A stretch of 64,000 bases of DNA, taken from positions 12,338,001-12,402,000 of the forward strand of contig OY740784.1 of the NCBI GenBank assembly GCA_963514005.1. Direction: 5' to 3'. Below the pieces are notes generated by a model. It saw only the letters and a program-made list of their open reading frames with translations. It made no database searches and was not told the origin of the DNA. This document shows, piece by piece, positions 586-50,742 of this stretch (its first letter is position 1; every line of letters begins with the position of its first letter). The stretch is from Raja brachyura (Eukaryota). The translations under genes and the position numbers were made by a program.

Positions 586-734
586 TCTAATAACCCCACT
601 CTTGCAGAAATGAGGAGGGTGTCATCCTCCTCCTCCTTCTCAGCAAGGTTTGATGGAACAGCACCTCAGCAAAAGTCAGTGGTGTGCAATATACTTTGAA
701 GGAAGAGCCAGAAATCATTTCCAAGTGATTAACA

Positions 735-1060
735 AGGAACTGCAGGTGCTGGAAAATCCAAGGTAGACAAAAGTGCTGGAGAAACTCAGCGGGTGCGGCA
801 GCATCTATGCAGCGAGGGAAATAGGCGAGGAAGAGGAGGGGCCAGAAGGCTGAGGGAGAGCTGAGGAGACAATAAGAGTTACCGGAAATTAGAGAAGTCA
901 ATGTTCTTGCCGTTGGGGTGTAAACTGCCCAAGCGGAATACGAGGTGCTGCTCCTCCAATTTCCGGTGGTGTTCACTCTGGCCATGGAAGAGACCGAGGA
1001 CAGAAAGGTCGGATTCAGAATGGGAGGGGGAGTTGAAGTGCTGAGCCACAGGGAGATGAC
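735..1060 (-). mobile_element. Penelope-like element fragment (terminal repeat plus GIY-YIG C-terminal coding remnant)
   Basis: 'aaggaactgcaggtgctggaaaatcc...' terminal repeat followed by the reverse complement of VAQHFNSPSHSESDLSVLGL...EEQHLVFRLGSLHPNG, homologous to 25325-25485. Confidence 0.75.
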
Positions 1061-2021
1061 AAGTGAAATGGCTGTGGAGACCGGCAGATATATATTTCTA
1101 AGGCGGAGATTAACAGACTCTTGATTAGTGCGGGTATCAGGGATTATAGGGGCGAAGGCAGGAGAATGGGGTTCAGAAGGAACGATAGATTAGCCATGAT
1201 TGAATGCCGGAGTAGAATGGGCGCTGGATGGCCTAATTCTGCCCTTATCACTTATTAACTTACGAAGTAGTGCTTCTCAAATCTGATTATTAAACATACT
1301 AAAAATATCAACGCTGGGTTATGTGGCTCAGATATATAAAGCTTCAAATGCTAAAGTTCAAGAAGAAAGTTTCTGTTCGGATTGCCAATTAGTCTTAACA
1401 TAATAATATTTTTGTTATTTCATATGCATGTAATTATGACGGAGATATTACATAACCACTTGGAAATATACAGACTTTGTCCATGTCCAAGATAACAGCC
1501 GAGGAGACTCATCAGAGTGTGACAATTGTATTTCATTTTAAAAGCAGTTGTGGGTTCGTTGCCTGCAGAGTCAGAAGGTCCTGGCTCAAATGTAACTAGA
1601 TATACGAGAACAAAAACTTGGGTTGACAGAGTGTAGAAGTGAATGAGGCCTTGCCTGCTCTTGCAGGTAGAACTAGAAGATTCCACAGCACTATTTCAAA
1701 GAGAAGCACGTATATTAATTCCATCTGGTGCTTTTTCAGAGTAATACACTTTCTGTGTATGCAAACTAGTTGCTGCCTCTGCACTGCATCAGTATCATTA
1801 TCACAGATACGAGAGGTTAACTTGCAAGTTAAACTAACAAAGTGCTTTATTTAAACAAATAACTTAAGAGAGACAAATATCATTGTTCTATTTACCTCTT
1901 TAACACAGATAGCAGACAGTTTCCTTTATCACCTCATTGTTTTGCAAAATATACACAAGTTCTGTTAGTCGCATGCTATATACTCCTATGACCATCTCCC
2001 AGCCATCTACAGTGTAGTCTT

Positions 2022-2112: not shown

Positions 2113-2424
2113 AAGACATCTGATTAGTCTCGTTTGTCATTAGTATCAACTGCACTGCCTCAGGTTTAGGTTTATTAATATCAAGCGTACTGAGGTACAA
2201 TGAAAAGCTTTGTTTTACATTCAATCCAAACAGATAATATACTATACATAAATAGAATCAAGCCAAACTCAAACACAACAGGTAGAACAAAGGGAAAGAT
2301 ACAGAGTGCGTAGTTTCATTCTGAGCATTGCCGACACCTGTTCCATAGCCAAAGTCCAATGTCTGTAATGGGGTGGAGATGAATCGAGTAGTACACTTCC
2401 AAAACAAGTTGAAATGTCACATGG

Positions 2425-2631
2425 GTTACACAAAAAGCTGGAGAAACTCAGCGGGTGCAGCAGCATCTAAGGAGCGAAGGAGATAGGCGATGTTTCGGGT
2501 CTGAAGAAGGGTCTTGACCCGAAACGTCGCCTATCTCCTTTGCTCCTTAGATGCTGCTGCACCCGCTGAGTTTCTCCAGCTTTTTGTGTAATCCTCGATT
2601 CTCCAGCATCTGCAGTTGCTTCTTTAACACT
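2425..2631. mobile_element. Fold-back Penelope terminal-repeat insertion with 16-bp TSD
   Basis: Inverted arms of about 75 bp surround a hammerhead core. TTGAAATGTCACATGG is duplicated at 2409-2424 and 2632-2647. Confidence 0.85.
2497..2532 (+). ncRNA. Minimal type I hammerhead ribozyme motif (Penelope-associated)
   Basis: CTGAAGA (2501-2507), extra A, stem II GGGTC-TT-GACCC, GAAAC, GTC cleavage triplet (2526-2528). Flanks GGT/GCC can form a short stem I. Activity is not established. Confidence 0.65.
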
Positions 2632-2840
2632 TTGAAATGTCACATGGTTGGCCTTGCACCACCAATATTCCAAATCTGACCCAGCTCTTTCTCTTTATAT
2701 CTACTCCATGGACATTCCGGGCATTGTTTATATAAACTATTTTCCAATCCACATCGCACCTTCTCCCGATCACGTAGAATGCCTTTTCACCAACTCATAT
2801 TGCCGTCCAGTATTCTTGCAACAACAACAACTATACTTAA

Positions 2841-2960
2841 GGGCCTGTCCCACTTGGCCATCATTTACGCGACAGGCCGCGATGGTCACGCAACTGTCGC
2901 GCGCGTCATCATGCGCCTTCATCCGTCAGCATGGCCGTCTGGAGCACGTGACGTCATTTG
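2841..2960. mobile_element. PIF/Harbinger-like MITE, left end only
   Basis: TTA followed by AGGGCCTGTCCCACTT, the same terminus as the complete copies. Confidence 0.65.
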
Positions 2961-3124
2961 AATACCCAGTTTATGATATTTACCCAGTTTATGATATTTA
3001 TGGTGATTTTCTAAAATGTTCCTGTTTCTTGAGTGGTGCTAGCAATTGGAAAACTGCAGATGTAATGCCCTTATTCAAAGAAAATAGGTGAATGAAAAGT
3101 AGCAAGCTGCAGACCAAATTAATC

Positions 3125-3350
3125 TGTAGGAAGGAACTGCAGATGCTGGTTTAAATTGAAGATAGACACAAAATGCTGGAGTAACTCAGCGGGCCAGGCA
3201 GCATCTTTGGAGAGAAGGAATGGATGATGTTTCGGGTCGAGAAGGGTCTTGAAGAAGGGTCTGAAGAAGGGTCTTGACCCGAAGCGTCACCCATTGCTTC
3301 TCTCCAGAGAAGCTGCCGGTCCCGCTGAGTTACTCCAGCATTTTGTATCA
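3125..3350. mobile_element. Fold-back Penelope terminal-repeat pair
   Basis: Minus copy followed by plus copy. The junction has a stuttered 'gaagggtct' unit three times, and the hammerhead core is mutated (GAAG instead of GAAA). Confidence 0.75.
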
Positions 3351-3569
3351 CTTATCTGGTTTGCTCTTCCATTTCTACCCAATGCACCCCTTCTCATGTA
3401 ATTCGTTCATCCAGCTGTTGGAGATACAACATTTGTCTTTTTAACCTCTTCCATACCCACAATCCAGGGACCCAAGCAGACATTGCATGTGAAGCATTAA
3501 TTCACTTTTGCACTTTCCGGTTTAGTATATTTTGGTGTTCACCACGTAGCTTTCTCTACAAAACTGTGC

Positions 3570-3935
3570 AATGTTAAAAAATGCGTGCGCTTATATCCAT
3601 GACGTGTAAAAGGCGGGCCAACTGCATATGGGCGGCGCGCGGCAGCGCACAGTTACGTGCGGTGACGTAATCATGTGTCACCGCGCACTACACGTACGAG
3701 GTCAGAGCGTAAGCGCGGGACCGCAATATGTATGCGATACGTCACGCCGGAGGCGTGCAAAGATTTTGTGGAACTACAAAATCCTGGAGTGCCGTGCGAT
3801 ACCGCGTGAAACTCCATGCCCCTCCGTGCTTCTCCATGCGACCGTCCCATGCCACCACACGCTACCCGTGCGTCTCAATGCGACGATGAGATCACGTAAA
3901 TGGCGCGCAAATGACGGCCAAGTGGGACAGGCCCT
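3570..3935. mobile_element. PIF/Harbinger-like MITE (right TIR) inserted in a decayed Penelope fragment (about 3370-4020)
   Basis: Ends AAGTGGGACAGGCCCT+TTA with a CpG-rich interior. The flanks resemble the Penelope coding region at 25080-25330. Confidence 0.65.
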
Positions 3936-20784: not shown

Positions 20785-21316
20785 GATAAAGGGTATTACC
20801 AAAAAATACCCTTTAATAAAATCTGACAATGTGCACTTTAACCACATTTGATTTTTTTCTATTGAAATTCTCAAATTGTGGAGTACAGAGGTAAATAAAT
20901 AAATGATGGGCCTTTGTCCCAAACATTATGGACGACATTATAACCAATCTTTATGGCACCATTTCCTCAGGCAGAATTAAAGGAAGATGATCTTTTTGTG
21001 GAGTGAATGGCAGTGATGAATAATGTTACAGAGAGAAAGCTCGAGTCGAAGTGAAACTATATGAGGATAAAAACTACCCCAGTTAGGGGTAAAGACCAAG
21101 CAAACCAACAATTAATTAAATCTATTATCTGCCCAACTTGATCAAAAATATAACATCTTTAGCTAAACTGTTAAATAATGGAAAAGTATGATGTGCATTG
21201 CATGACTTCATGACTAAAATTAACTCAAGGATAAGTTGTTTTTTTATCAGTACTGTTGAAAACTGCCTTCTATCAACTCATCCACATGAACTAAGAATTG
21301 ACCAGTCATTGACTGG

Positions 21317-22027
21317 GTACACCAGTCATTGAAAGTAGGCATGCAGGTGCAGCAGGCAGTGAAGAAAGCAAATGGTATGTTAGCATTCATAGCGAAAGGA
21401 TTTGAGTATAGGAGCAGGGAGGTTCTACTGCAGTTGTACAGGGTTTTGGTGAGGCCACACCTGGAGTATTGCGTACAGTTTTGGTCTCCAAATCTGAGGA
21501 AAGACATCCTTGCCATAGAGGGGGTACAGAGAAGATTCACCAGACTGATTCCTGGGATGTCAGGACTTTCATATGAGGAAAGATTGGATAGACTCGGTTT
21601 GTACTCGATGGAATTTAGAAGATTGAGGGGGGATCTTATAGAAACCTACAAAATTCTTAAGGGGTTGGACAAGCTAGATGCTGGAAGATTGTTCCCGATG
21701 TTGGGGGAGTCCAGAACAAGGGGTCACAGTCTAAGGATAAGGGGGAATTCCTTTAGGACCGAAATGAGGAAAACATTCTTTACACAGAGAGTGGTGAGTC
21801 TCTGGAATTCTCTGCCACAGAAGGTAGTTGAGGCCAGTTCATTGGCTATATTTAAGAGGGCGTTAGATGTGGCACTTGTGGCTAAAGGGATCAGGGGGTA
21901 TGGAGAGAAGGCAGGTACGGGATACTGAGTTGGATGATCAGCCATGATCACATTGAATGGCGGTGCAGGCTCGAAGGGCCGAATGGCCTACTCCTGCACC
22001 TATTTTCTATGTTTCTATGTTTCTATG
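21317..22027 (+). mobile_element. CR1 LINE 3' fragment with intact ORF2 C-terminus (young copy)
   Basis: ORF 21329..21928 has LYRVLVRPHLEYCVQFWSP, RLRGDLIETYKI and TRGHSLRI. Tail is (TTTCTATG)n. Confidence 0.92.
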
Positions 22028-24504: not shown

Positions 24505-24728
24505 TCATCAAGTACCTGGACAGTAAATTGGACTGGTCCAGGAATGCTGAGGCCCTGTACAAGAAGGGACAGGGCCAGCTGAGCTATTTGAGAAGCTCTG
24601 CTCCTTCAACATCTGAAGTGAGATGCTGCAGATGTTCTACCAATCGATGGTAGCCAGTGCCATATTCTTCGCTGCCGTGTGCTGGAGCAGCAGGGCGAAA
24701 GCTGCGGATGCCAATAGGATCAACAAAG
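24505..24728 (+). mobile_element. Rex1-like LINE internal fragment
   Basis: KLDWSRNAEALYKKGQ and MLQMFYQSMVASAIFFAAVCW motifs. Confidence 0.7.
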
Positions 24729-25755
24729 ACTCTATCCCCAACCAATTCCTCCGTCTACACCGCATCTGCGCCCAAAATGAGTTGTTCCATACCAGGACAT
24801 TCGAGATGTCCTCGTTCTTTAGGGTACAGGGATTCCCCTCTCCCAGTATAGATGAGAACCTCACTCGTGTCTCCTCGGTACCCTGCAGCTCCGCCCTTGC
24901 TCCCCATCCCCCTTGTCGCAACAGAGACAGAGTCCCCCTAACCCTTACCTTCCACTCCATCAGCCGTCACATAATCCTCTGAAATTTCCACCATCTCCAA
25001 TGGGATCCCACCATCTCCACCCCTTTCCCTCCTCAACCTAGTAAAATCATCCCTTCCCATCCAAACCACCCCCTCCCCAGCTGCCTTCCCCTGCAACCGC
25101 AGAAGATGCAACACCTGTCCCTATACCTCCTCCCTCGACTGTCCAGGGATCCGACAGCCCTTTCAGGTTAGGCAGAGGTTCACTTGCACCTCTTCCAACC
25201 TCATTTACTGTATTCGTTGTTCAAGATGTGGACACTTATACGTCGGCGAGACCAAACGCAGACTGGGCAATCTGCTGTTTCGCTGAACACCTTCGCTCAG
25301 TCCGCCTGAACCTACCCGATCTCCCGGTTGCAAAACACTTTAATTCTCCTTCCCATTCCCACACAGACCTTTCTGTCCTCAGTCTCCTCCATTGTCAGAG
25401 CGAGGCTAAACGCAAATTGGAGGGACAGCAGCTCATATTTCGCTTGGGCAGTGGTATGAATATTGTTTTCTCTCACTTCAGGTAGCTCTGGCATTTCATC
25501 TCTCTCTATCCCTCCGCCACCCAAGTCACACTAGATTCTCTTTTTCATCCAACAAACAGCTTACTATGGCCTGTTTCCTTAATCATCGTTACTTTTTTGC
25601 ATATCTTTCGTTCATCGTTCTTTATCTCTCCATATCAACGTCTATACCTCTCATTTCCCTTATCACAAACCAGTCTGAAGAAGGGTCTCGACCCGAAACA
25701 TCACCTATTCCTTCTAACCAGAGATTAGTAACTGCAGTGTTTTGTGTCTATCTTC
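24729..25755 (+). mobile_element. Penelope-like retroelement 3' part: RT thumb remnant, GIY-YIG endonuclease, terminal repeat
   Basis: SIPNQFLRLHRIC, C-x-C motifs, NLIYCIRCSRCGHLYVGETKRRLG (GIY-YIG), FAEHLRS, PVAKHFN and a hammerhead-like core at 25675-25702. Frameshifted. Confidence 0.88.
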
Positions 25756-26204
25756 AGCCATGATTGAATGGCGCAGCAGACTCAATGAGCTGAAAGGCCT
25801 AATTTTGCTCCTATTGATGAACGAAAGATATGCAAAAAAGTAACGATGATTAAGGAAACAGGCCATAGTAAGCTGTTTGTTGGATGAACCTTAACGTGTA
25901 GGAGAGCGGCAGAATCAGGGTGGAGGGGGAGGGGGAGTTGACGGGAATATGGAGAAAAATAATGTGATATTAGTGCAAGTGGATTATGATGATCAGCATG
26001 GACTTGAAGATCCCGTTCTCAAATTATATGACTCCAGGTACATTTTATGCAGTAGATGATTATTATCAGGGATAATATGGTGGCTGTTAAGGAGGATTGG
26101 AGAGCCAAGGAGAAAGTATTGGATTGAGCAAGCAGTTTCACTGCACTTACAGAGACAAGCTATAGACACAAAGAATTCAAAAACCATCTTCTGAACTATT
26201 TAAT

Positions 26205-31185: not shown

Positions 31186-31565
31186 GTGTAGGAAGGAACT
31201 GCACACTGAAGAAGGGTTCCAACCCGAAACATCACCTATTCCTTTTCTGCAGAGATGCTGCTTCACCCGCTGAGTTACTGCAGCGTTTTGCGTCTATCTT
31301 CAGCATCTACCTTTAATCTCGACTGTTTAACCCCTAAGCCACATACTTTTCACATACTGATCTGTATCACTGCCTGGATTTAAAGAGTGATGATGACCCC
31401 CAAGGGCATGCATCTTGAGCTGCTCATTACTCTTTTTGGGTCGAGACCCTTCTTCAGACTTCACCAGTCTAAAGAAGGGTCTTGAACCGAAACGTCACCT
31501 ATTCCTTTTCTCCAGAGATGCTGCCTGACCTGCTGAGTGACTCCAGCGTTTTGTGTCTATCTTAG
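31186..31565. mobile_element. Two fold-back Penelope terminal-repeat fragments (31186-31290 and 31437-31565)
   Basis: Each has a short minus piece abutting a plus copy. Cores are CTGAAGAAGGGTTCCAACCCGAAACATC and CTAAAGAAGGGTCTTGAACCGAAACGTC. Confidence 0.7.
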
Positions 31566-32228: not shown

Positions 32229-32815
32229 GTGTAGGATGGAACTGCAGATGCTGGTTTCAACCAAAGATAGACACAAAAAACTGGAGTAGCTCAGCGGGTC
32301 AGCCAACATCTCTGGAGAAAAGTACTAGGTGACATTTTGGGACGAGACACTTCTTGGTTACTTGGTCCTCCAAAATGTTCCAACTGGAATTTAAACTGGA
32401 TTTGGTGAAGGGAGGGGTTAAGCCAGAGAGGGTTATTGGGAAGAAAGTGCCACTTTAAATTTAGTTGCATCTGGCTGGGCAACCGTGGTTTGGTGGAGAT
32501 TATTCCATGCTTTAATAGTGAACAAATTGCTGTACACATCCGTCTTTGAGGCTGGGACCACAAATTGGATCGAATGCCCTCGTCTGCTCCTAATTGGTTT
32601 GGGGTTGGTGTAGGTCTTGTGATCTACGTCTAGCTGACCATTTAACATTTTGTAAAAACAGGTCAAACGGTGAGCTTTACATCTGTCTTGGAGAGGGTTC
32701 CACCCCAGAGAATTCAGAAGTCTAAAGTACCATCTTGACCCGAAATGTCAAGAAGGTAATTTTTTTCCCACAGATGGTGTCTGACCCGCTGAGTTTCTCC
32801 AGTTTTGTGTGTCCA
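32229..32815. mobile_element. Fold-back Penelope repeat pair interrupted by a minus-strand LINE 3' fragment (about 32360-32725)
   Basis: Minus arm at 32229-32355 and plus arm at 32735-32815. The insert encodes LLNSLGWNPLQDRCKAHRLTCFYKMLNG...RGHSIQF...AWNNL. Confidence 0.7.
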
Positions 32816-36923: not shown

Positions 36924-37119
36924 CTAGATCAAGTGCAGACCCATTGAGTCTGGTCCCCCATTGTGCGGCTGCGGGGAGGGAGGGGGCAGCATGCGGCGTC
37001 ACACTCACTAACTACCCCCGCCCCCACATACACGCTAACGACCCCCTTGATATTATATTATTATTAATTTGCTCCCTTTACCCATAACGGCCCAATCTAC
37101 TGACGTATAGCCCCCAACT
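36924..37119 (-). mobile_element. Helitron 3' end
   Basis: Minus strand reads CAGACTCAATGGGTCTG (hairpin), CACTTGAT, CTAG|T, the same geometry as 28932-28961. Confidence 0.6.
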
Positions 37120-39434
37120 GGGGGGAGGGAGAGGGGGGGGGAGAGGGGAGGGGGGAGAAGGGAGGGGGGGAGAAGGGAGGGGGGGAGAAGGGAGGGGGGG
37201 AGATGGGAAGGGGGGAGATGGGAGGGGGGAGAAGGGAGGGGGGAGAAGGGAGGGGGGGAGAAGGGAGGGGGGGAGAAGGGAGGGGGGGAGAAGGGAGGGG
37301 GGGAGAAGGGAGGGGGGGAGAAGGGAGGGGGGAGAAGGGAGGGGGGAGAAGGGAGGGGGGAGAAGGGAGGGGGGAGAAGGGAGGGGGGGAGAAGGAGGGG
37401 GGAGAAGGGAGGGGGGGAGAAGGGAGGGGGGGAGAAGGGGGGGGAGAAGGGAGGGGGGAGAAGGGAGGGGGGAGAAGGGAGGGGGGGAGAAGGGAGGGGG
37501 GGAGAAGGGAGGGGGGGAGAAGGGAGGGGGGGAGAAGGGAGGGGGGGAGAAGGGAGGGGGGAGAAGGGAGGGGGGGAGAAGGGAGGGGGGAGAAGGGAGG
37601 GGGGAGAAGGGAGGGGGGAGAAGGGAGGGGGGGAGAAGGGAGGGGGGAGAAGGGAGGGGGGGAGAAGGGAGGGGGGAGAAGGAGGGGGGGAGAAGGGAGG
37701 GGGGGAGAAGGGAGGGGGGGAGAAGGGAGGGGGGGGAGAAGGGAGGGGGGGAGAAGGGAGGGGGGGAGAAGGGAGGGGGGGAGAAGGGAGGGGGGAGAAG
37801 GGAGGGGGGGAGAAGGGAGGGGGGGAGAAGGGAGGGGGGGAGAAGGGAGGGGGGGAGAAGGGAGGGGGGGAGAAGGGAGGGGGGGAAGGGAGGGGGGGAA
37901 GGGAGGGGGGAGAAGGGAGGGGAGAGAAGGGAGGGGAGAGAAGGGAGGGGGGAGAAGGGAGGGGGGGAGAAGGGAGGGGGGGAGAAGGGAGGGGGGGAGA
38001 AGGGAGGGGGGGAGAAGGGAGGGGGGAGAAGGGAGGGGGGAGAAGGGAGGGGGGGAGAAGGGAGGGGGGGAGAAGGGAGGGTGGGGAGAAGGGAGGGGGG
38101 GAGAAGGGAGGGGGGAGAAGGGAGGGGGGGAGAAGGGAGGGGGGGAGAAGGGAGGGGGGGAGAAGGGAGGGGGGGAGAAGGGAGGGGGGGAGAAGGGAGG
38201 GGGGGAGAAGGGAGGGGGGGAGAAGGGAGGGGGGGAGAAGGGAGGGGGGGAGAAGGGAGGGGGGGAGAAGGGAGGGGGGGAGAAGGGAGGGGGGGAGAAG
38301 GGAGGGGGGGGAGAAGGGAGGGGGGGGAGAAGGGAGGGGGGGAGAAGGGAGGGGGGGGAGAAGGGAGGGGGGGAGAAGGGAGGGGGGAGAAGGGAGGGGG
38401 GGAGAAGGGAGGGGGGGAGAAGGGAGGGGGGGAGAAGGGAGGGGGGGAGAAGGGAGGGGGGGAGAAGGGAGGGGGGGAGAAGGGAGGGGGGGAGAAGGGA
38501 GGGGGGGAGAAGGGAGGGGGGGAGAAGGGAGGGGGGGAGAAGGGAGGGGGGGAGAAGGGAGGGGGGGAGAAGGGAGGGGGGGAGAAGGGAGGGGGGGAGA
38601 AGGGAGGGGGGGAGAAGGGAGGGGGGGAGAAGGGAGGGGGGAGAAGGAGGGGGGGAGAAGGGAGGGGGGGAGAGGGAGGGGGGGAGAAGGGAGGGGGGGA
38701 GAAGGGAGGGGGGGAGGAGGGGGGGAGAAGGGAGGGGGGGGAGAAGGGAGGGGGGGAGAAGGGAGGGGGGAGAAGGGGAGGGGGGGAGAAGGGAGGGGGG
38801 AGAAGGGAGGGGGGGAGAAGGGAGGGGGGGAGAAGGGAGGGGGGGAGAAGGGAGGGGGGGAGAAGGGAGGGGGGGAGAAGGGAGGGGGGGAGAAGGGAGG
38901 GGGGGAGGAGGGGGGAGAAGGGAGGGGGGGAGAAGGGAGGGGGGGAGAAGGGAGGGGGGGGAAGGGAGGGGGGAGAAGGGAGGGGGGAGAAGGGAGGGGG
39001 GAGAAGGGAGGGGGGAGAAGGGAGGGGGGGAGAAGGGAGGGGGGGAGAAGGGAGGGGGGGAGAAGGGAGGGGGGGAGAAGGGAGGGGGGGAGAAGGGAGG
39101 GGGGGAGAAGGGAGGGGGGGAGAAGGGAGGGGGGGGTAGGGAGGGGGGAGAAGGGAGGGGGGAGAAGGGAGGGGGGGAAGGAGGGGGGGAGAAGGGAGGG
39201 GGGAGAAGGGAGGGGGGGAGAAGGGAGGGGGGGAGAAGGGAGGGGGGGAGAAGGGAGGGGGGGAGAAGGGAGGGGGGGGAGAAGGGGGGGGAGAAGGGAG
39301 GGGGGGAGAAGGGAGGGGGGGAGAAGGGAGGGGGGGAGAAGGGGGGGGAGAAGGGGGGGAGAAGGGGGGGGAGAAGGGGGCGGGGGGGAGAAGGGGGGGG
39401 GGGAGAAGGGGGGGGGGGAGAAGGGGGGGGGAAG
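37120..39434 (+). repeat. Polypurine minisatellite, unit about GGAGAAGGGAGGGGG (15 bp), roughly 150 copies
   Basis: About 2.3 kb of almost only G and A (about five pyrimidines seen). Unit length varies with G-run length. Confidence 0.97.
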
Positions 39435-39449
39435 CAGAGGGCGAGGAGG

Positions 39450-41750
39450 AAGGCTGTTTTTCAGGCTGGAGGCTTGTGAGTAGTGGTGTGCCACAGGGAG
39501 CGATGCTGGTCCCATTGTTCTTTGTCATGCATGTCAATAATTTGAATGGGAATGTGCAAGACATTATTTTTAGTTTAGTTTGAAGAGTTAGCCTGGAAAC
39601 ATGCGTTTTTGTCCACAGAGTCCACTCCGACCATTGATATCCCATTCCCAAGATGCGAGGGTGCATTTGGAATTTGTAGAATGCCAACGAGATGCTTGTT
39701 GAGAACAGCTCATGGCCGAGCATACTGTGGTAACTAGATTCATGCACCTGTCTAATTGCTTCTTAAATGTTGCGATAGTCCCTGCCTCAACTACTTCTTC
39801 CGGCTCGTGCCATTCACCCACTATCCTTTGCATGAAAAATGTACCTCTCAGATTCCTACAAGATCTTTTCCCCTTCACCTTGAACCTATGCCCTCTGATT
39901 CTTTATTGTCCCACTCTGGACAAGAGACAGTGCGTTCATTCGACCTATTCTTCTCATGATTTCATACACCTCTATAAGATCACTCCTCATCCTCCTGTCC
40001 TCCAATGAACATCCTAGCCTGCTGAAAATGTCGCTACAGCTGTCCCTCGAGTCCTGGTAACATCCTCGTAAATCTTCTCTACACCCTTTCCAATTTAACA
40101 ACATATTTCTTATAACATGGTGCCCAGAACTGAGCACAATACTCCAAATGCAGTCTCATCAAATTCTTATATAACTGCAACATGACATCCCAACTTCTAT
40201 ACTTAATACCCTGACTGATGAAGGAAATATGCCAAAAGCCTTATTGATAACCCCATCTAAGTGGCATGCCACAGCACCTTCAAGGAAGTATGCACCTGCA
40301 CTCCCCAGAGCCATACCATTCACCGTGTAGGTCCTGGCCATGTTAGACTTTCCAAAAGACAACACCTCACATTTATCTGTATTAAATTGGTGTCAAGTTG
40401 GGAAAAGGGAAAGTACAACAGGATCTGAAGTCAATGAAACTAAGCATGCAGGTACAGCAGGCAGTGAAGAAAGCGAATGGCATGTTGGCCTTCATAACAA
40501 TGAGTATAGGAGCAAAGATGCCCTTCTGCAGTTGTGAAGGGCCCTCGTGAGACCACACCTGGAGTATTGTGTGCAGTTTTGGTCTCCAATTTTGAGGAAG
40601 GACGTTCTTGCTATTGAGGGAGTGCAGCGTAGATTCACAAGCTTAATTCCCGGGATGGCGGGGCTGTCATATGCTGAGAGAATGGACTTGTATATTCTGG
40701 AGTTCAGAAGGATAAGAGGGGATCTTATTGAAACATATAAGATTATTAAGGGTTTGGACACGCTAGATCAGGAAATGTCCCCGATGTTGGGGGAGTCCAA
40801 AACCAGGGGCCACAGTTTAAGAATAAGGGGTAACCCATTTAGAACGGAGATGAGGAAACACGTTTTCTCACAGAGAGTGGCGAGTCTGTGGAATTCTCTG
40901 CCTCAGAAGTCGGTTCTCTGGAAACTTTCAAGAGAGAGCTAGATAGGGCTCTTGAAGATAGCAAAGTCAGGGGATATGGGGAGAAGGCAGGAACGGGGTA
41001 CTGATTGGGGATGATCAGCCATGATCACATTGAATGGTAGTGCCGACTTGCAGGGCCGTATGGCCTACTCCTGCACCTGTTGTCTAAATTCCATCAACCA
41101 TTCCACAGCCTACCTGGCCAATGATCAAGATCCTGCTGCACTTTTTGACAACCATTTTCACTACCTGCAATACCACCCATTTTAGTGTTATCTGAAAATT
41201 TGCTAATCTTGCCATGTACATTCTCATCCAAATCATTGATATAGATGACAAACAGTAATGGGACCAGCACCAAACACTGAGGCACACCACTAGTCACAGG
41301 GCCCCAGTCTGAGAAGCAACCTTCCACCATCACCCTCAGCTTCCTTCCAGGAAGCCAATTCTCTATCCATTCAGCTATCTCACGTTGGTCCCTTGAGTTA
41401 GCTAGAATTCATGGGCCTGAGACTTTATTCCTTGTAGCCCAACAGGCTCAGGGGTGATCACAGAGAGGCATATAAACTCATGAAGGGAATAGACATGGTG
41501 AATGCACAAAGTATTTTACCCATGGTAAGGGAATCACAAACTGGAAGGCATAGGTTTAAGGTGAGAGGGAAAAGATTAACTAGCAACGCAAGGGGAAACA
41601 TTTGCACACAGAGGGTGGTAGGTATATGGAATGAGCTGCCAGAGGAAGTAGTTGAGGCAGGTATAGTGACAACATTTCGAAGACACTTGGACAGGTACAT
41701 GGATAGAAAAGGTTTAGAGTCTTATGATCGGAAAACTGTCAAATGGGTCT
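39450..41750. mobile_element. CR1 cluster: (+) 39450-39570, (-) 39700-40390 continuing at 41085-41390, nested (+) 40395-41085, (+) 41400-41750
   Basis: RT motifs (VTSGVPQCLVLVPLLFVIYINDLD, KISKFSD) and ORF2 C-terminal motifs in the listed ORFs. Confidence 0.85.
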
Positions 41751-44263: not shown

Positions 44264-45133
44264 CAGGGATCGGCAACCTTGTTCTGCGTAGGGGCCAGGA
44301 CGCATGTCTGTGAGTGGATGGCGGGCCACATCTATCACGTGTACACATGGATCCCGCGCCCATCACACCCCGGATGGCAGGCATCAAACCACATAGATCC
44401 CGCCCCTTCGAGGATGCCATGCGGAGCACTGGACCCTAGTTACGGGCAAAGATGCTTACGGGCGCTCACGAACGTGTCGCACCCACGGACCATTGCCTTG
44501 GCTCTGTCCTGAAGGTGATGGCTCAAATACTCATACTCACTCATCCCCGGTCTATTGACAACCCTGATCCCGACTGTGTGTTTAAGAAAGAACTGCAGAT
44601 GCTGGAAAATCGAAGGTAGACAAAAATGCTGGAGAAACTCAGCGGGTGAGACAGCATCTATGGAGCGAAGGAACAGGCGACGTTTCGGGTCAAGACCCTT
44701 CTTCAGACTGGTCTCAGAGCAACATCAGCCACTTCTGAAGAAGGGTCCCGACCCGAAACGTCGTCTATTCCTTCGCTCCATATTTGCTGCCTCACTCGCT
44801 GAGTTTCTCCAGCTATTTTGTCTTCCTCCGATCCCGACAGTGAAGCCCAAACACAGAAGGTGCGTGTCCGTGCCGGCAGCTTTGCGCAGGATGCGGTACA
44901 GCCAGAGCTTGACGCTCCTCTGCAGCTCCGCGCTCCTCGGCGGTTCGGCCATTCCGGCCGCCAGCGCAGGCCTCCTTGTGTCCTTGCATCACCGCCCGTG
45001 GGCCCGGGACGTAACAGAGATTAAGGAAGTCGGCGGGACAGATAAATACGGGGGGGAAAAAAAACACCCGCGGGCCGGACGATTTCAGGTTAGGGGCCGC
45101 ATTTGGCCCGGGGTCGTAGGTTGCCGACCCCTG
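44264..45133. mobile_element. hAT (Charlie-like) MITE
   Basis: TIRs CAGGGATCGGCAACC and GGTTGCCGACCCCTG. 8-bp TSD CTTTAGGT/CTCTAGGT. Confidence 0.87.
44578..44828. mobile_element. Fold-back Penelope repeat insertion with two back-to-back hammerhead cores
   Basis: Minus core at 44679-44706 and plus core at 44735-44762. Flanks GATCCCGAC(T/A)GTG are duplicated. Confidence 0.82.
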
Positions 45134-47034: not shown

Positions 47035-47589
47035 TTATGCAGAGATAGATAGATTCTTGATTAGTACAGGTGTCAGGGGTTCTGGGGAGAAGGCAGGAGA
47101 ATGGGGCTAAGAGGGAAAGATAGATGACCCATGATTGAATGGTGGAACAGACTTGATGGGCCGAATGGATTAATTCTGCTCCTATCAGTTATGAACTTAC
47201 TATGGTGGCTCTAAGTAACACATAGTTACATATTCTCGATTTTTACTGGTTCTCGGATACAGAGTAAAAAATACATTTCAATTTTGGTCCCTGTTGTAAT
47301 ATGCCACATACAGCAGGCCTCACAAACAACAGTTTGCACACTCCCTGTTATCACATGGGTTTCTTTCAGGTGCTCCCATTTCCAGCCACTCCCGAAGGCA
47401 CGGAAGTGACCAATGTCAATTGGCACGAGTGTGTGGGTGAGTGGTCGAAACGAGGAAGAGCTGATCAGAAAGTGTGGAGAGTTGATAAAATGTATGAAAA
47501 ATGGGATTAGTATAAATGGGTGGTTGAAGGTTGGGACAGAGTCAGTGCCTGTTTCTGTGCTGTATTTCTCCATGATTTCTCCATGATCA

Positions 47590-47905
47590 GTCTCTGGAAG
47601 GGTTCCAACCTTAAACATCACCCATCCATGTTCTCCAGAGATGCTCCCCGACTTGCTGAGTTACTCCAGCACTTTATTTAAGAAGGAACTGCAGATGCTG
47701 GAAAATCAAAGGTAGACAAAAATGCTGGAGAAACTCAGCGGGTGAGGCAGCATCTATGGAGCGAAGGAAATAGGCAACGTTTCGGGTTGAGACCCTTCTT
47801 CATTGCCTATTTCCTTCGCTCCATAGATGCTGCCTCACCCACTGAGTTACTCCAGCACTTTGTGCTTTTTGGTCAAGATTCCAGCTTTTGCAGTTCATTG
47901 TGTTT
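47590..47905. mobile_element. Triple Penelope terminal-repeat structure (+/-/+)
   Basis: Plus copy at 47590-47672, minus copy at 47677-47801, plus arm at 47802-47905. Confidence 0.72.
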
Positions 47906-50649: not shown

Positions 50650-50742
50650 TGTTTAAGAAAGAACTGCAGCTGCTGGAAAAATCGAAGGTAGACAAAAATG
50701 CTGGAGAAACTCAGTGGTTTCTCCAGCATTTTTGTCTACCTT
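50650..50742. mobile_element. Very short fold-back Penelope repeat insertion lacking the hammerhead
   Basis: GAAGGTAGACAAAAATGCTGGAGAAAC and GTTTCTCCAGCATTTTTGTCTACCTTC form a perfect hairpin. Flanks TGGTGA(A/T)CCT are duplicated. Confidence 0.75.

Follow-up and report, generated by a model that had tools for sequence, protein, structure and literature searches.

A 207-bp fold-back in a ray genome, built from two Penelope-like end pieces and probably the product of a single insertion

The insertion at positions 2425-2631

Within the window, i.e. the whole 64-kb stretch of DNA that was analysed, positions 2425-2631 hold an insert whose left arm is the reverse complement of part of its right arm (Table 1). 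A sequence-only reading had described it as a 207-bp insert of two inverted Penelope pLTR pieces bounded by a perfect 16-bp TSD, and both statements proved to be exact. The arms are 97-99% identical to an intact copy (L246), and both derive from a young Penelope-like element that is intact elsewhere in the genome. The short arm stops at the short 3' site and lacks the CUGA half of the hammerhead. Past the ends of the insert the target continues to match the element, for two bases at the short and three bases at the long end, as would be expected if both target ends had acted as primers.

At element position +95 the short arm carries a C (2425-2431) and the long arm a T (2588-2594). The same difference occurs in L002, L004, L006 and L007, giving five copies in all with different junctions, although this set is biased, as the four were picked by their similarity to the copy at 2425-2631. 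Short ends frequently finish in a run of C, whatever the long arm has there, and the run and the mismatch at +95 may stem from slippage or from bases added as synthesis starts.

Table 1. Positions of the parts of the insertion and of related copies in the window
Feature	Position	Strand	Remarks
Left TSD, 16 bp	2409..2424	+	Last 2 bases also match element +96/+97 (short end)
Short arm, inverted pLTR, element +19..+95	2425..2501	-	98.7% to parent copy L246
Inversion junction, GTC microhomology (3 nt) common to both arms	2499..2501		
Long arm, sense pLTR, element +2..+134, with tail	2499..2631	+	97.0% to L246
Tail, ~37 nt, between short and long 3' sites, on a single arm only	2595..2631	+	
Right TSD, 16 bp	2632..2647	+	First 3 bases also match element +135..+137
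Minimal type I hammerhead core, CTGAAGA...GAAACGTC	2501-2528	+	Predicted cut after 2528
5'-truncated copy of a related subfamily: ORF C-terminus (P0001), 3' UTR, arm, tail	723..1061	-	Hammerhead deleted
Older fold-back	3125..3350		Core mutated, GAAG in place of GAAA
Sense short arm and inverted tail tip	about 31186..31301		13-bp TSD, intact core
Sense arm, only +1..+27 inverted	about 31434..31565		No intact core
Decayed head-to-head arms ~365 nt apart	32229..32815		Weak 9-bp TSD
Fold-back, long and short arm, ~20-nt filler	44578..44828		Cores on both strands; 13-bp TSD, 1 mismatch
Fold-back inside older solo copy (about 47580-47905)	~47676..47864		Arms begin at +5 and +32; no intact core
Small true hairpin without any hammerhead	50650..50742		11-bp TSD, 1 mismatch

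Related copies in the window

Seven further loci had been listed as sharing the fold-back design, each with a hammerhead core and its own TSD, and were checked for arms, core and TSD, which makes eight loci with 2425-2631. Several are fold-backs. The copy at 31186 (~31186-31301) forms no hairpin, as its left part is just an inverted tip of the tail, ~19 nt long, for which there is no partner, and 47590 represents two nested insertions. The core is intact at three of the eight loci and absent or broken at the other five. A TSD of at least 11 bp is present at five of the eight, while none was found at 3125-3350 or at the locus listed as 31437-31565 (~31434-31565). The GGGT preceding CTGA at 3257, which had been attributed to the inversion, is rather a local tandem repeat of the start of the core; the inversion point of this fold-back lies near 3240. 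About ten more copies within the window are solos. The copy at 723-1061 ties the pLTR to an ORF inside the window, and a Pfam search with a 60-aa ORF fragment from the window gave no match.

The parent element

The genome of 2.7 Gb, in which the window occupies C4:12338001-12402000, contains 48,087 exact matches to a 27-nt stretch of the arms. Intact parent units were reached by walking out from the 723-1061 copy, and element position +1 was set at the A three bases ahead of the CUGA core. One unit (L246) measures 3982 bp, lies in partial tandem and has its ATG at +167, an ORF of 1191 aa and a 3' UTR of 240 bp; at a further locus (L249/L250, C18:46359000-46378999) four units of 3965 bp form a tandem array. 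The parent unit thus spans ~3.97 kb, with the hammerhead at +4..+31 and 3' ends at ~+97 and ~+132. Pfam matches in the ORF, both under the curated cut-offs, are RVT_1 at residues 675-843 (E 5e-4) followed by GIY-YIG at 1095-1128 (E 0.002). The parent accordingly shows the features of an EN+ Penelope-like element (PLE): a single ORF with RT and C-terminal GIY-YIG, subject to these matches lying under the Pfam cut-off, the partial-tandem pLTR layout of L246 and L249/L250, a hammerhead in the pLTR and an optional tail of 30-40 bp. By the order of its domains and by its motifs, it is putatively assigned to the Penelope/Poseidon clade. The short start site at +93..+98 reads TAACCC in the young subfamily, and this motif is absent from older subfamilies. 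It equals one vertebrate telomere repeat (C strand), a likeness that is probably due to chance.

The hammerhead motif and its predicted folding

A minimal type I hammerhead motif is indeed present at 2501-2528, with CUGANGA, helix II, GAAA, NUH and a palindromic helix III (ACGT) that lacks a loop. Helix II, proposed to comprise five base pairs (GGGTC/GACCC), has 4 bp around a 4-nt loop in the computed fold. The suggested Rfam comparison was run, and no hammerhead model matched at E values up to 1; the scan returned 12 matches, all below the gathering score, of which 11 were to miRNA hairpin models. The inversion junction at 2497 had also been thought to lengthen stem I, and it does raise the number of possible pairs from two to four, but the same junction forms a 77-bp stem that buries the core. 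An improved ribozyme is therefore not what the computed folds suggest: even the construct proposed for transcription, 2490-2540, misfolds by 10 kcal/mol. For a transcript of 2425-2631 a hairpin of -161.4 kcal/mol was computed, with the hammerhead-compatible fold 32 kcal/mol worse and the pair probabilities of helices I and II rounding to 0.000, so that this fold is predicted to be inaccessible. The native context disfavours it as well, by ~10 kcal/mol as computed for a single RNA without protein. Thus, the hammerhead is predicted to be a passenger that is unable to fold in a transcript of the hairpin.

The motif resembles the minimal hammerheads of metazoan PLEs, as described in the accessible text of PMC4209133, in its conserved core, the unpaired base before helix II, and the lack of a helix III loop with palindromic positions 15.2-16.2. 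In contrast, helix II (4 bp) and the native helix I (2 bp) fall short of the 7-8 and 4-5 bp stated there for Schistosoma. Dual motifs on opposite strands, separated by 100-700 bp, are mentioned in the same text, along with many solo motifs.

Products in the sampled regions

The sample comprised 86 of the first 100 listed matches of the 27-nt arm stretch (distal C1), 58 random 10-kb stretches and the window; it comes mostly from the first 4 Mb of contig C1, and all fractions refer to the sampled regions. Arms were paired up to a gap limit of 160 nt, and copies less than 150 nt from a locus edge as well as duplicates were removed. Among 93 young insertions not chosen for their junction, the commonest product was the solo stub, with 67 solos (41 from ~+1 onward, 26 extending upstream into the UTR or ORF) next to 21 fold-backs and 5 insertions with partial inverted pieces. 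The fold-back share of 23% is, if anything, high, since the matches listed past C1:2.93 Mb were all forward ones, a bias towards fold-backs. An ORF-less hairpin of about 90-300 bp had been proposed as the dominant product; this does not hold for its frequency, which is just 21/93 and at most 26/93 if partial inverted pieces are counted, nor for its size, as fold-backs span 153-2243 bp and the largest hold ORF sequence in both arms. Foreign filler of up to 148 nt separates the arms of some fold-backs; at L140/L141 (C1:1207522-1207789), where the filler has this length, both arms begin at +1 with a G in front. Two long copies at L152:2968-3216 have the opposite arrangement to the usual head-to-head one: their tail ends face each other, short end against long end, with a few bases between them. 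The family also shows nested insertions (47590-47905; L187).

Junctions and shared templates

The 21 fold-backs have 17 junction types, 15 of them singletons. The junction of 2425-2631 exists in 706 exact copies in the genome, and inspection of 30 such loci by eye assigned 16 to the young subfamily, 11 to older arm types and 3 as partial. Among copies with this junction the tail can be on one arm or the other (10 vs 3). Occurring on several subfamilies and haplotypes and with either tail side, this junction has likely been re-made by microhomology. The commonest junction, with 1237 copies, joins two ~+1 ends over a five-base quasi-palindrome. Both states of its central base occur (12 vs 7), a pattern that annealing of two ends across a mismatch would produce. 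Breakpoints had been expected either to define subfamilies or to be unique to each copy. They are not all unique, as they recur at microhomologies, but neither do they define subfamilies.

The arms of one insertion, in contrast to the scattered junctions, belong together: in 61 fold-backs they have 18 variants in common where 2.0 were expected and 5000 shuffles gave a maximum of 7, and the variant +84C occurs on both arms in seven of seven fold-backs that are spread over six junction types. This suggests that the arms were paired by their template while the junctions were made anew. Conversion between the arms after insertion could be a partial source of this concordance. The three bases from +93 differ between the arms in 13 of 52 readable pairs, for which a single shared template alone does not account. 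Of the 30 fold-backs with asymmetric arms, 20 have a short arm that extends further 5' than the tail-bearing arm, and 10 have a long arm that extends further; in the former 20 each arm thus contains sequence missing from its partner, and neither can have been copied from the other.

3' ends, their pairing and target sites

Solos end at the short site (~+97) in 52 of 66 cases and at the long site (~+132) in 14, and the short site, being their usual 3' end, is accordingly regarded as a start site. One short and one long end are combined in all 21 fold-backs not chosen for their junction and in 63/64 across all sets, where independent draws from the solo ratio would yield this pairing in 33% (binomial P 1e-10). 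Of 61 fold-backs, 52 are flanked by a TSD of at least 8 bp (mode 15); in a control of 2000 mismatched flank pairs, 0.7% had such a TSD. The TSDs are AT-rich (62% vs 53%). CR1 sequence lies at the target in 23/197 sites as compared to 107/3000 random mid-chromosome positions. A same-locus control, which may include the same CR1 copies, gave 22/195 sites vs 205/1950 positions (P 0.71), and a target preference for CR1 was dropped.

5' ends and the putative RNA start

Almost half of the arms (54/114) begin at -1..+4. Starts around the predicted cut (+30..+35) number 5/114 and those at +6..+29 20/114, which is the same rate, at low power; hence no excess of breakpoints at the ribozyme cut site was found among the 114 arms, which suggests that the templates were mostly uncut. 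Uncut RNA is also the main template of an anole element according to the accessible part of PMC11167929. The base in front of +1 is non-native in 4511 exact copies, and a hand count of the first 100 listed gave 52 G, 37 A and 11 T, set against ~27 G, 37 A and 37 T as expected from base composition, not from other truncation points. In only three copies (L137, L025, L280) a lone extra G before +1 is resolved by the TSD. As known from other reverse transcriptases, a copied cap would yield G. The +1 context agrees with the initiator consensus (YYANWYY), and four of the five bases of the downstream promoter element are matched at +29..+32. An internal Inr/DPE promoter has been described for the Penelope element of D. 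virilis in the accessible text of PMC2377424.

The run-off cluster near +1 likely marks the start of a capped RNA. A spliced exon as its source is less likely than an RNA start: the sequence upstream of +3 does resemble a 3' splice site, but no common sequence is found upstream of truncated copies. A barrier to the reverse transcriptase is a further possible cause. Element sequence is present in contigs of four runs whose RNA status is uncertain; no start, end or GT..AG joint was seen among the matches listed.

Discussion

The insert at 2425-2631 arose, with good probability, in one insertion event that placed two end pieces of an EN+ Penelope-like element head to head; both nicked strands likely served as primers, and the product is likely immobile as a unit. 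All steps of the mechanism are read from genomic end-products. Each of two nicks ~15 nt apart would give rise to a cDNA, with synthesis starting at the short site from one nick and at the long site from the other, in both cases on the same RNA or on RNA from the same source locus. The cDNAs would frequently run off at +1..+4, three nucleotides before the CUGA core, their 3' ends would anneal via a few bases (here GTC at 2499-2501), and fill-in by repair would leave the hairpin and the TSD. The accessible text of PMC11167929 describes a protein of the anole element that nicks and extends both strands, with two internal RNA start sites that bound the tail. It might further be speculated that the Penelope protein acts as a dimer, one subunit always using the short and the other the long site of one RNA, both running off the capped end three bases before the hammerhead core; we hold this reading tentatively, at slightly less than even chances. 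If it were true, a single rule would explain tail, inverted pLTR and stubs alike, and the core promoter and the hammerhead would occupy overlapping sequence.

That a single primed cDNA folds back on itself at a microhomology and copies itself, with an endonuclease resolving the product at the short site, appears unlikely. Self-priming has been proposed in PMC3846280, and in PMC8557442 that the endonuclease resolves the tail, as far as the accessible sections of both go, and snapping back would account for the shared variants and palindromic junctions. It is compatible with the copy at 2425-2631 and with the 10/30 asymmetric cases in which the long arm reaches further 5', but is unable to yield the 20/30 in which each arm has private sequence, so that it is excluded as the sole route. 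It is also at odds with the foreign fillers of up to 148 nt between some arms and with the short site being the usual 3' end of solos (52/66), hence a start site. Still more improbable is that these hairpins are two independent solo insertions at one site or arose by a later inverted duplication in repair, the least likely of the explanations considered. The family does include nested insertions (47590-47905; L187), but a single TSD bounds both arms in 52/61 fold-backs, long and short ends are strictly paired, and the arms have variants in common.

The sequence-only reading had left two options for the hairpins, a retrozyme-like non-autonomous family or a recurrent product of integration, and the latter is favoured by the 17 junction types in 21 fold-backs with 15 singletons. 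We consider it quite improbable that the hairpins form a retrozyme- or MITE-like mobile family whose members would be transcribed and then re-inserted whole by the Penelope protein. The fixed outer ends, the clean TSDs, the two junctions with 706 and 1237 exact copies and the 10:3 skew of the tail side at the first of these would suit such a family, and non-autonomous pLTR derivatives do exist according to the accessible parts of 10.64898/2026.07.22.740005 and PMC8557442. However, junctions cut across haplotypes, subfamilies and tail side rather than forming a fixed inherited structure with diagnostic variants, identical junctions sit on different subfamilies and haplotypes, and variants cut across junctions. 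Furthermore, 15/17 junction types are singletons, no tandem arrangement is seen, and the core is absent or broken at 5/8 window loci and predicted to be buried in 2425-2631. Non-LTR retrozymes, as presented in the accessible text of 10.64898/2026.07.22.740005, are similarly short, ORF-less and pLTR-related and have a type I hammerhead, but they consist of head-to-tail tandem units with a complete hammerhead in each, whereas the ray units are head to head and the core is intact at only 3/8 loci. Some re-mobilised hairpins are possible among the 706- and 1237-copy junctions. The insert at 2425-2631 is thus likely to be neither a new mobile RNA nor an improved ribozyme, but a pointer to the way in which PLEs integrate.

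The preferred reading, priming from both target strands, has a parallel in the twin priming of L1, where both strands prime on one RNA and produce an inversion with microhomology at the junction. With L1, the internal site used by the second primer varies, and the two pieces derive from non-overlapping parts of the RNA; in contrast, the ray arms begin at two fixed sites, separated by 35-40 nt, and cover one and the same stretch.

Among EN+ PLEs the layout is already known: the accessible text of PMC8557442 and of PMC3846280 (Adineta Pen2a_Av) describes insertions with an adjacent inverted 5'-truncated copy, a one-sided tail of 30-40 bp and a TSD. The ray insertions share with these the head-to-head inverted pLTR, the overlap at the junction, the tail at one end, the TSD and a parent with RT and C-terminal GIY-YIG, but differ in that the arms are often cut down to ~100-130 nt with no ORF; the copy at 2425-2631 is the shortest form of this published layout. 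TSDs of the ray fold-backs are also longer (mode 15 bp) than the 8-10 bp of the Adineta examples in the part of PMC3846280 that gives them. The strict pairing of a short with a long end was counted here and is not stated in the accessible sections of PMC8557442 and PMC3846280, and the former calls the origin of inverted pLTRs and one-sided tails in PLEs undefined. A literature search, in which subscription journals were thinly covered and which did not extend to Repbase reports or supplements, yielded no description of twin priming or ORF-less hairpins for PLEs.

Close to the ray element is also Poseidon PAc of Anolis carolinensis, which according to the accessible text of PMC11167929 likewise has two internal start sites that bound the tail and AT-rich targets. 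Nicking and extension of both strands and an uncut main template are described there for PAc, where we deduce them from genomic copies. The ORF of PAc begins inside the hammerhead, with the start sites within the ORF, whereas the sites of the ray element lie in the 5' UTR and the ATG is at +167; fold-back products and run-off at the edge of the hammerhead are not described for PAc in that text. Drawn from a family whose young copies number in the tens of thousands, the counts agree with the two start sites and with the extension of both strands that were found in vitro for the anole element. For annotation it matters that these hairpins score on miRNA models and resemble MITEs or retrozymes, yet are retrotransposon stubs.

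Other repeats in the window

An older 5'-truncated copy of the same Penelope family lies at 24725-25714 (+), comprising ~780 bp of ORF sequence (70% identity) and, after it, the UTR and the hammerhead, and a short inverted UTR piece is found nearby at 25817-25878. The fold-back at 3125-3350 is enclosed, together with a CR1-like scrap, by an element at 2840-3932 that has terminal inverted repeats and TTA on both sides and that we take to resemble a PIF/Harbinger non-autonomous transposon. The 3' part of a LINE, presumably CR1-like, occupies ~21300-22020 (+) and contains an open frame of 208 codons. At ~37100-39450, repeated low-complexity matches correspond to a G-rich tandem array with a period of ~15 bp.
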